From positions 800,001 to 864,000 of the forward strand of contig CBDANF010000002.1 of assembly GCA_965197475.1 (NCBI GenBank): 64,000 nt of DNA, given 5' to 3'. Source of the stretch: Candidatus Poribacteria bacterium. GTDB lineage: Bacteria; Poribacteria; WGA-4E; WGA-3G. This document shows positions 14,963 through 15,308 of the stretch, piece by piece. Every line of letters starts with the position of its first letter. Position 1 is the first letter of the stretch. The translations under genes and the position numbers were made by a program. The notes under the pieces were generated by a model, which made no database searches, was not told where the DNA came from, and saw only the letters and a program-made list of their open reading frames with translations.

Positions 14963-14991
14963 TTGCAATTTTTCCATACACATGGTATAAT
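14963..14991 (+). promoter_or_regulatory. sigma70 promoter of the pyr operon
   Basis: TTGCAA-17nt-TATAAT with TG extension. Confidence 0.7.
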
Positions 14992-15021
14992 TTTTAACAA
15001 TTGACCTTGATGTTCAGAAAG

Positions 15022-15055
15022 CCTTTTTAATCCCATCCGGAGAGGTGGAAAAAGG
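15022..15055 (+). promoter_or_regulatory. PyrR-binding RNA stem-loop (anti-antiterminator)
   Basis: CCTTTTTAATCCCATCCGGAGAGGTGGAAAAAGG resembles the PyrR site consensus (CUUUAA..UCC.GAGAGG..GAAAGG) and lies upstream of pyrR. Confidence 0.8.
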
Positions 15056-15259
15056 ATGTTCCGCTACACATCGGGACCTAAAGTTCCCTACAACTGTTCA
15101 CAGAAAAAAAGCACTTGCAGTGCATGTTTTCCAGAACAGCAACACAAATTGCAGCATCGAATCCATAAGATTTGCGGTAATTTTCATAAATCGTTTTTAC
15201 ATTTAAGCCACCTCTTTTGTAAAAGTAAAATATTGAATTGCACCCTTCTCACTTTGTAG
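15056..15259 (+). CDS. Putative pyr leader ORF (67 aa)
   Basis: SD-like GAGGTGG 7 nt before the ATG, inside the PyrR loop. TAG falls inside the terminator hairpin. Confidence 0.4.
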   Translation: MFRYTSGPKVPYNCSQKKSTCSACFPEQQHKLQHRIHKICGNFHKSFLHLSHLFCKSKILNCTLLTL

Positions 15260-15274
15260 TGAGAAGGTTTTTTT
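15244..15274 (+). terminator. Intrinsic terminator (attenuator) upstream of pyrR
   Basis: CCTTCTCACT-TTGT-AGTGAGAAGG followed by T7. Confidence 0.85.
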
Positions 15275-15308
15275 ATGCTGTCAAGCAGCACGTTATTGGT
15301 AAATAATC

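Follow-up and report, generated by a model that had tools for sequence, protein, structure and literature searches.

The leader of the pyrR operon in a sponge-symbiont Candidatus Poribacteria genome, where it lies ahead of pyrimidine genes, probably attenuates transcription under the control of PyrR, with termination counteracted by a translating ribosome in place of an RNA antiterminator or, at least, to a much larger extent than by one. Among RNA-binding attenuation proteins PyrR is a textbook case, and annotations everywhere treat its elements as RNA switches of the Bacillus type; the comparative record assembled here argues that the PyrR sensor is wired to a different output, namely a ribosome that blocks the terminator. 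Comparison of related leaders shows, at the level of sequence, that selection keeps a leader open reading frame (ORF) open up to the terminator and ignores the encoded peptide, and it is from this selection on the frame that we infer the mechanism. An open frame combined with a drifting peptide would be anticipated if what counts is that translation proceeds as far as the terminator.

Architecture of the pyrR leader

In the window, as we call the whole stretch of 64,000 nucleotides that was analysed, a promoter, a PyrR loop, a leader ORF and a terminator precede pyrR (Table 1), and all four lie where a preliminary description of this DNA had placed them. The promoter combines a -35 element TTGCAA (14963-14968), a 17-nt spacer and an extended -10 element TGgTATAAT (14983-14991); the -35 and -10 hexamers are both kept in relatives, and we infer a transcription start near 14998-15000. 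Separately, an RNA-library contig from a relative ends at 15013, a weak hint for the start only, contigs being unable to show ends.

Table 1 Features of the pyrR leader and of the genes that follow it, in window positions
Feature	Position	Strand	Basis
sigma-70-type promoter	14963..14991	+	10/12 consensus matches, extended -10
PyrR binding hairpin (predicted)	15022..15055	+	RF00515 alignment, fold, covariation
Shine-Dalgarno-like GGAGAGGTGG	15039..15048	+	loop and upper-stem 3' strand, 7 nt before ATG
leader ORF P0001, 67 codons	15056..15259	+	ATG 15056, TAG 15257-15259
CCACCTCT	15208..15215	+	complementary to AGAGGTGG of the PyrR hairpin
intrinsic terminator	15244..15274	+	fold energy, stem and T-run
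pyrR	15309..15863	+	first gene 3' of the attenuator; NCBIfam NF003549
dihydroorotase gene	15891-17177	+	TIGR00857, 404 bits
putative carA	17190-18335	+	position and length only
putative carB	18346-21603	+	position and length only

The predicted PyrR hairpin (-10.1 kcal/mol) has the two stems, the internal loop and the conserved purine-rich terminal loop that the Rfam family RF00515 requires: a lower stem (15022-15028/15049-15055), an internal loop (15029-15032), an upper stem (15033-15037/15044-15048) and the terminal loop CGGAGA (15038-15043). It also stands in the context expected of the family, ahead of pyrimidine genes and in a PyrR-encoding genome. The preliminary description had proposed an Rfam search as a check. 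The leader aligned to all 115 positions of the RF00515 model (15019-15276; 41.1 bits, E 2.8e-4), but this score is under the gathering score of 54 bits, and a scan of the whole window returned no match at gathering. We attribute the shortfall to the approximately 150 bases inserted between hairpin and terminator, and not to the hairpin itself. Among relatives, 12/18 short leaders pass the gathering score (54.1-59.5 bits), and two long leaders (L004 and L011) fall below it. No second RF00515 match was found in the same genome at E up to 1. In an alignment of 49 distinct hairpin sequences from Poribacteria, Actinomycetota and Bacillaceae, the upper stem was paired in 245/245 cells, three of its five pairs were altered on both sides, and the covariation score was reached by 0/500 shuffles.

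The leader ATG follows immediately upon the last paired base of the hairpin, and the genome's 16S rRNA ends with the canonical anti-Shine-Dalgarno CCTCC; SD-like motifs precede 21 of the 41 long ORFs of the window. Two proposals of the preliminary description were upheld: the Shine-Dalgarno sequence of the leader ORF is contained in the PyrR hairpin, in its loop and 3' strand and well spaced from the ATG, and the frame fills the gap between hairpin and terminator. Codons 63-66 constitute the terminator 5' arm, the TAG lies at the junction of loop and 3' arm (+13 of the 5' arm), and a second in-frame stop, TGA (15260-15262), backs it. The terminator itself has a 10-bp stem (15244-15253/15258-15267), a TTGT loop and a T7 run (15268-15274); it folds with -15.9 kcal/mol (z -5.0), and its arms co-vary between lineages.

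Downstream, pyrR starts 54 nt past the leader ORF stop and 253 nt past the leader ATG. Its product matches NCBIfam NF003549 with 234 bits (cut-off 138) and the PyrR chains of the PDB with E values from 2e-61 to 3e-45. Sponge metatranscriptomes (four runs) contained assembled contigs of relatives only (90-95% identity, DNA carry-over being possible); one of them spans 15013-16100 and others cover parts of this span, which puts leader and pyrR on one assembled piece. These contigs lend no support to any statement on transcript ends, levels, termination or read-through.

The preliminary description had also drawn attention to CCACCTCT, located within the leader ORF. The complementarity is there, and in the predicted MFE and centroid folds CCACCTCT pairs with the Shine-Dalgarno region; what did not hold is its conservation, the duplex being strong (-16.2 to -16.6 kcal/mol) in just three cases, the window and the two relatives closest to it, L002 and L003. 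The sequence differs in the remaining long leaders, where the complement is not kept at that place. The complementarity is probably incidental, and CCACCTCT was dropped as a candidate antiterminator or anti-SD because it is kept only in these three closest genomes.

Conservation of the leader frame in Poribacteria

Conservation of the frame despite sequence drift had been set beforehand as a test of the proposal. It was examined in 56 related Poribacteria pyrR loci with upstream DNA, and the expectation was borne out: in 52 of them a start codon stands at the foot of the PyrR hairpin and the frame stays open until no more than 10 nt remain before the terminator, or extends past it, with a freely drifting peptide. 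In one locus (L009) the leader is likewise present but is interrupted once past the terminator stem. Two deeper-branching loci with an HD-domain gene before pyrR (L051 and L052) show the same layout with 18 and 14 codons, their TAG abutting the arm of a different terminator. The four remaining loci have unrelated upstream DNA (L012, L014 and L015) or an assembly gap (L033).

Stop codons were counted between the ATG and a point 10 nt short of the terminator arm in 50 leaders, i.e. that of the window and those of the 49 loci that have a locatable terminator as well as a start codon at the hairpin foot. The ATG frame contained none, against 128 and 100 in the other two frames; it was free of stops in all 50 leaders, the other two in 0 and 15. 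The leaders form a long class, to which the window belongs (139-273 nt from ATG to arm, 47-97 or more codons), and a short class (51-64 nt, 16-20 codons, extended to 30-40 in frames that continue past the terminator), the leader ORFs of Poribacteria as a whole measuring 14 to 97 or more codons. When ORF bodies were shuffled, the frame stayed open in 0.5-5% of trials for each of 26 long leaders (1.9% for the window); for the short leaders, which are close kin, the corresponding probability was 0.19-0.36 each and is not statistically striking alone. The leaders being kin, these probabilities hold per leader and not jointly. The 26 long leaders nevertheless represent about 12 groups with mutually unalignable peptides, and the open frame is therefore not the echo of one ancestral frame.

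The position of the stop and the distribution of indels show how far the constraint extends. In the 45 leaders in which it was measured, the stop never came earlier than -10 from the terminator arm. It lay inside the hairpin in 15 of 24 long leaders, at -8 or -10 in five and beyond in four, and among 21 short leaders it lay at -4 in 15 and beyond in six. Each of the five long leaders that stop at -8 or -10 differs by a single-base frameshift from sisters that stop in the hairpin, and some of these five may be assembly errors. All five indels located more than 30 nt before the arm were multiples of three (15, 15, 9, 3 and 12 nt), whereas all nine frame-shifting indels (1, 2 or 4 nt) fell in the last ~20 nt before it, where their only effect is that the stop falls at -10 or -8, or beyond the terminator.

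The encoded peptide shows no comparable constraint. In five long-class pairs pN/pS was 0.67-0.91, with differences spread evenly over the three codon positions, and short-class pairs showed a wide scatter about comparable values (0.18 to 5.4). Several long-class groups resemble one another in their first 4-6 codons.

The same layout in an order of Actinomycetota

Actinomycetota MAGs figure among the nearest PyrR loci outside Poribacteria, and they too have an ATG just after the hairpin. We sampled 61 genomes of one Actinomycetota order, of which 57 had an RF00515 match (39 above cut-off); 38 elements were inspected and 35 parsed. An ATG stood 0-9 nt after the hairpin in 30/35 elements and was missing from the other five. 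In 29 of the 30 ATG-bearing leaders the frame was open to the terminator; in the thirtieth, an ORF of two codons precedes another ATG, whose frame of 21 codons terminates in the terminator loop. The three frames contained 2, 64 and 48 stops, and most of these leader ORFs end with TAA inside the terminator 3' arm. An ATG at the hairpin foot was found in none of eight elements from Bacillaceae controls and in none of four high-GC actinobacterial leaders.

Proposed mechanism

In the mechanism that we propose, abundant pyrimidine would lead to binding of PyrR with UMP or UTP and to stabilisation of the hairpin, which would hide the Shine-Dalgarno sequence (15039-15048) and the AUG (15056) and leave RNA polymerase with no ribosome behind it; the terminator hairpin (15244-15267, with U7) would then form and transcription would end before pyrR. 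When pyrimidine is scarce, the hairpin would be free, a 30S subunit would load, and a ribosome would trail the polymerase through the 67 codons, so as to occupy the 5' arm (codons 63-66) or be parked at the TAG/TGA while the 3' arm and the U-tract are made. With the terminator blocked by the ribosome, transcription would proceed into pyrR, pyrC and the next genes, and the leader peptide itself would be functionless. High pyrimidine was assigned to PyrR binding and termination because this is the only sensible polarity.

Some points count against this mechanism. Antitermination over leaders of 47-97 codons would need tight coupling of transcription and translation, and in the five long leaders with stops at -8 or -10 a terminating ribosome would reach over no more than a few bases at the start of the stem.

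Antiterminator pairing and competing readings

The strongest competitor is a Bacillus-type RNA switch, in which an antiterminator arises from pairing of the hairpin's 3' half (GAGAGGTGG) to the 5' arm of the terminator (CCCTTCTC) and PyrR prevents this pairing, translation of the leader ORF being auxiliary, e.g. by shielding the long leader from nucleases or Rho, or by opening the hairpin. We consider it unlikely. Each leader was refolded with the terminator 3' arm blocked, a treatment under which, in 7/7 Bacillaceae controls, 10-12 bases of the terminator 5' arm became paired to the hairpin's 3' half, as in a classical antiterminator. The same pairing appeared in the predicted nascent-RNA fold of 10/25 long and 2/21 short Poribacteria leaders and was absent from that of the window. 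It is true that every lineage, like the Bacillaceae controls, has a 5' arm rich in pyrimidines and complementary to the hairpin, and that an 8-9 bp duplex of GAGAGG(T)GG with the terminator 5' arm is possible in 46/46 leaders (-6.7 to -11.7 kcal/mol). However, this short helix is no stronger than the PyrR hairpin (-7 to -10 kcal/mol across leaders) and weaker by far than the terminator (-12 to -21 kcal/mol), and in long-class leaders its formation would mean closing a 140-270 nt loop; as modelled, the pairing would thus be at most a helper beside the ribosome, and it is through this duplex that a classical switch could contribute. The difference in free energy between terminated and non-terminated folds failed to distinguish Poribacteria leaders from classical controls, and it was abandoned as a criterion. 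An RNA switch, moreover, offers no account of a frame that is open exactly to the terminator, nor of frameshifts that are confined to the last 20 nt. As to the involvement of Rho, the C/G ratio of the leader bodies is not consistently high (median 1.14, range 0.58-1.69), and a rut-site design, which we also considered, is unsupported by these ratios.

Distinctly less probable still is purely translational control, whereby PyrR would repress the leader ORF, and leader translation would open the terminator hairpin, chiefly a translational block, and relay ribosomes to pyrR. Such a relay could draw on the terminator 3' arm, which reads GAGGAGG or similar and is followed by T6-8 and an ATG in 23/25 long leaders; the GAGGAGG arm would be a good ribosome binding site buried in the hairpin, and the SD-like motif of pyrR itself is weak. 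Against this, the ORF that begins behind the T-run can be as short as 4 codons or as long as 20 or more, and its stop lies, relative to the pyrR ATG, at any position between -50 and beyond +11. This variability of length and end makes a conserved relay unlikely, and for it the second ORF was rejected as a route to pyrR. The short-class and Actinomycetota leaders mostly do not have the ATG after the T-run or its continuity, and a hairpin followed by T7 is a textbook intrinsic terminator.

The possibility that the leader ORF encodes a functional small protein, as the first gene of the operon, is very improbable. A good ribosome binding site, a conserved frame and the similarity of the first codons would suit a gene; yet the pN/pS values and the equal change at the three codon positions do not, the ORFs range from 14 to 97 or more codons and cannot be aligned between groups, their C-terminus is dictated by the terminator arm, and the window's peptide has no family match in NCBIfam or Pfam. 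Lastly, a frame open by chance in an A+T-rich spacer, to which the 1.9% shuffle probability and the availability of three frames might give some room, is refuted by the comparative stop counts over the 50 leaders, by body indels in multiples of three and by the recurrence of the layout in a second phylum, and we give it practically no weight.

Discussion

If ribosome-mediated antitermination under PyrR control is the correct reading, all the sponge-associated Poribacteria sampled here would have retained this mode, as would an entire order of Actinomycetota with small genomes. Were the mode widespread, many elements annotated as Bacillus-type PyrR attenuators would use another mechanism. The leader ORF would be a pure 'ribosome track' of 14 to ~100 codons that delivers a ribosome onto the terminator arm, with a stop in or beside the hairpin to park it there. 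The comparison shows that leader ORFs free of peptide conservation can reach ~100 codons; tight coupling of transcription and translation would be implied for Poribacteria, an uncultivated phylum. A start codon at the hairpin foot, together with a frame open to the terminator, would provide a signature for the re-annotation of PyrR elements.

In the literature searched, no description of a PyrR site combined with a leader ORF was found; in passages from PMC6524683, PMC3766115, PMC2965389, PMC13328217, PMC4581275 and PMC9916696, PyrR appears only as a Bacillus-type regulator or as an item of the reference list. Relative to the Bacillaceae controls, the Poribacteria leaders have an antiterminator that is predicted to be weak or absent, and a conserved ORF in its place. 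They share with the Bacillus-type attenuators the hairpin recognised by PyrR, the intrinsic terminator downstream, the control of pyr genes and the logic of the sensor. Attenuation of the Bacillus subtilis type is reportedly the subject of work by Lu and Switzer from 1996 and of a review by Turnbough and Switzer from 2008.

In Mycobacterium smegmatis, the PyrR hairpin is said (Fields and Switzer, 2007) to overlap the ribosome binding site and to repress the initiation of translation. The overlap of hairpin and ribosome binding site is common to both systems, but there the first structural gene is occluded and no terminator is present, whereas here the start of a leader ORF would be occluded and the output would be termination 190 nt downstream. 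Repression of the mycobacterial type was rejected for our leader: its occluded start belongs to a non-conserved leader ORF, and a strong terminator stands before pyrR. In E. coli pyrBI (pyrL), the signal is UTP-sensitive pausing of the polymerase and PyrR plays no part. There, likewise, the leader ORF extends into the terminator, whose hairpin is blocked by a ribosome that follows the polymerase closely; in contrast, ribosome loading in the Poribacteria leader would be gated by an RNA-binding protein. Having a PyrR site, the leader is not a plain attenuator of the pyrBI type: its sensor is that of a PyrR element, and its output would resemble that of pyrBI.

The closest parallel is the pyr leader of Thermus strain ZO5, which reportedly (Van de Casteele et al., 1997) has a PyrR site and a leader-peptide ORF that overlaps the terminator, and for which it is said to have been proposed that a translating ribosome, with no antiterminator RNA, prevents formation of the terminator hairpin and that PyrR blocks this. 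The preliminary description had regarded the combination as not known to be described, a view that this reported precedent would overturn. The window's leader has both hallmarks, a ribosome binding site in the PyrR hairpin and an ORF that reaches across the terminator hairpin, and its logic would be the same as that reported for the Thermus leader. The differences lie in the phylum, in the much greater length of the leader ORFs in the window's clade (47-97 or more codons) and in the stop, which in the long class of Poribacteria is typically inside the terminator hairpin. The support at the level of sequence is unusually clean for a mechanism that is not known from more than one study, that on Thermus. 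Whether PyrR-gated antitermination by the ribosome is a widespread, perhaps ancestral, output of RF00515 outside Firmicutes and not a curiosity of Thermus is a question on which we are close to evenly divided, with a slight lean towards the negative. What is new here, beside the single Thermus sequence, is the breadth of the comparison (more than 80 leaders from two phyla, Poribacteria and an order of Actinomycetota), the strength of its comparative signature and the very long leader ORFs.

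A possible start site within the terminator hairpin

The 3' arm of the terminator that precedes pyrR carries an SD-like sequence, GAGAAGG in the window and GAGGAGG in many relatives, and is followed by the T-run and then by an ATG (15275). Such an ATG after the T-run was found in 23 of the 25 long leaders, the class to which the window belongs (139-273 nt from the leader ATG to the terminator arm), and the ORF that it opens varies from 4 to at least 20 codons across them; in the window it comprises 15 codons, ends at a TGA (15320-15322) and overlaps the start of pyrR. Translation of the leader ORF could expose a putative start site that is hidden in the terminator hairpin.

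Features of the attenuator and of the genes upstream of it (window positions)
Feature	Position	Strand	Basis or match
577-aa WD40 beta-propeller protein	12531-14264	+	Pfam WD40, E 3e-70
211-aa gene directly 5' of the promoter	14289-14924	+	no family match in Pfam or NCBIfam
SD-like terminator 3' arm, T-run, ATG and short ORF	15261-15322		sequence and relatives

Interrupted and missing leaders

In one relative (L009:900-1500), the leader is broken immediately past the stem of the terminator, where other DNA (about 400 nt) intervenes. Beyond it lie second copies of the promoter and of the PyrR hairpin, which run straight into the T-run, the ORF body being deleted; the arrangement has the appearance of an insertion or a duplication inside the attenuator. 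Three further Poribacteria (L012, L014, and L015) had no leader in the 400 nt inspected before pyrR, where the 3' end of another gene is followed by structured DNA, and their pyrR would be deprived of the attenuator. The C-terminus encoded by that upstream gene appears to resemble that of a TnpB-type transposon nuclease.

Genes upstream of the promoter

The 3' end of the 211-aa gene (14700-14920 region) is kept beside the leader in many relatives. Since two short pieces of this gene (14727-14764 and 14871-14909) match several different contigs assembled from sponge metatranscriptomes, which diverge on both sides of the match, it may be a member of a multi-copy family. The WD40 gene lies two genes upstream; eukaryote-like repeat proteins of this kind are often reported from sponge symbionts.

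Leader ORFs in more distant genomes

In two deeper-branching Poribacteria (L051:740-880 and L052:570-720), PyrR hairpin, leader ORF (14-18 codons, with a GTG start in one), and a different terminator all precede an HD-domain gene, which sits between the attenuator and pyrR, and this position indicates that the attenuator predates the present gene order. One Actinomycetota order with small (1.1-2.4 Mb), very A+T-rich genomes (L117-L146) also has PyrR elements that include a leader ORF, about 21 codons long; the ORF starts 1 nt past the PyrR hairpin and usually ends with a TAA within the terminator 3' arm.
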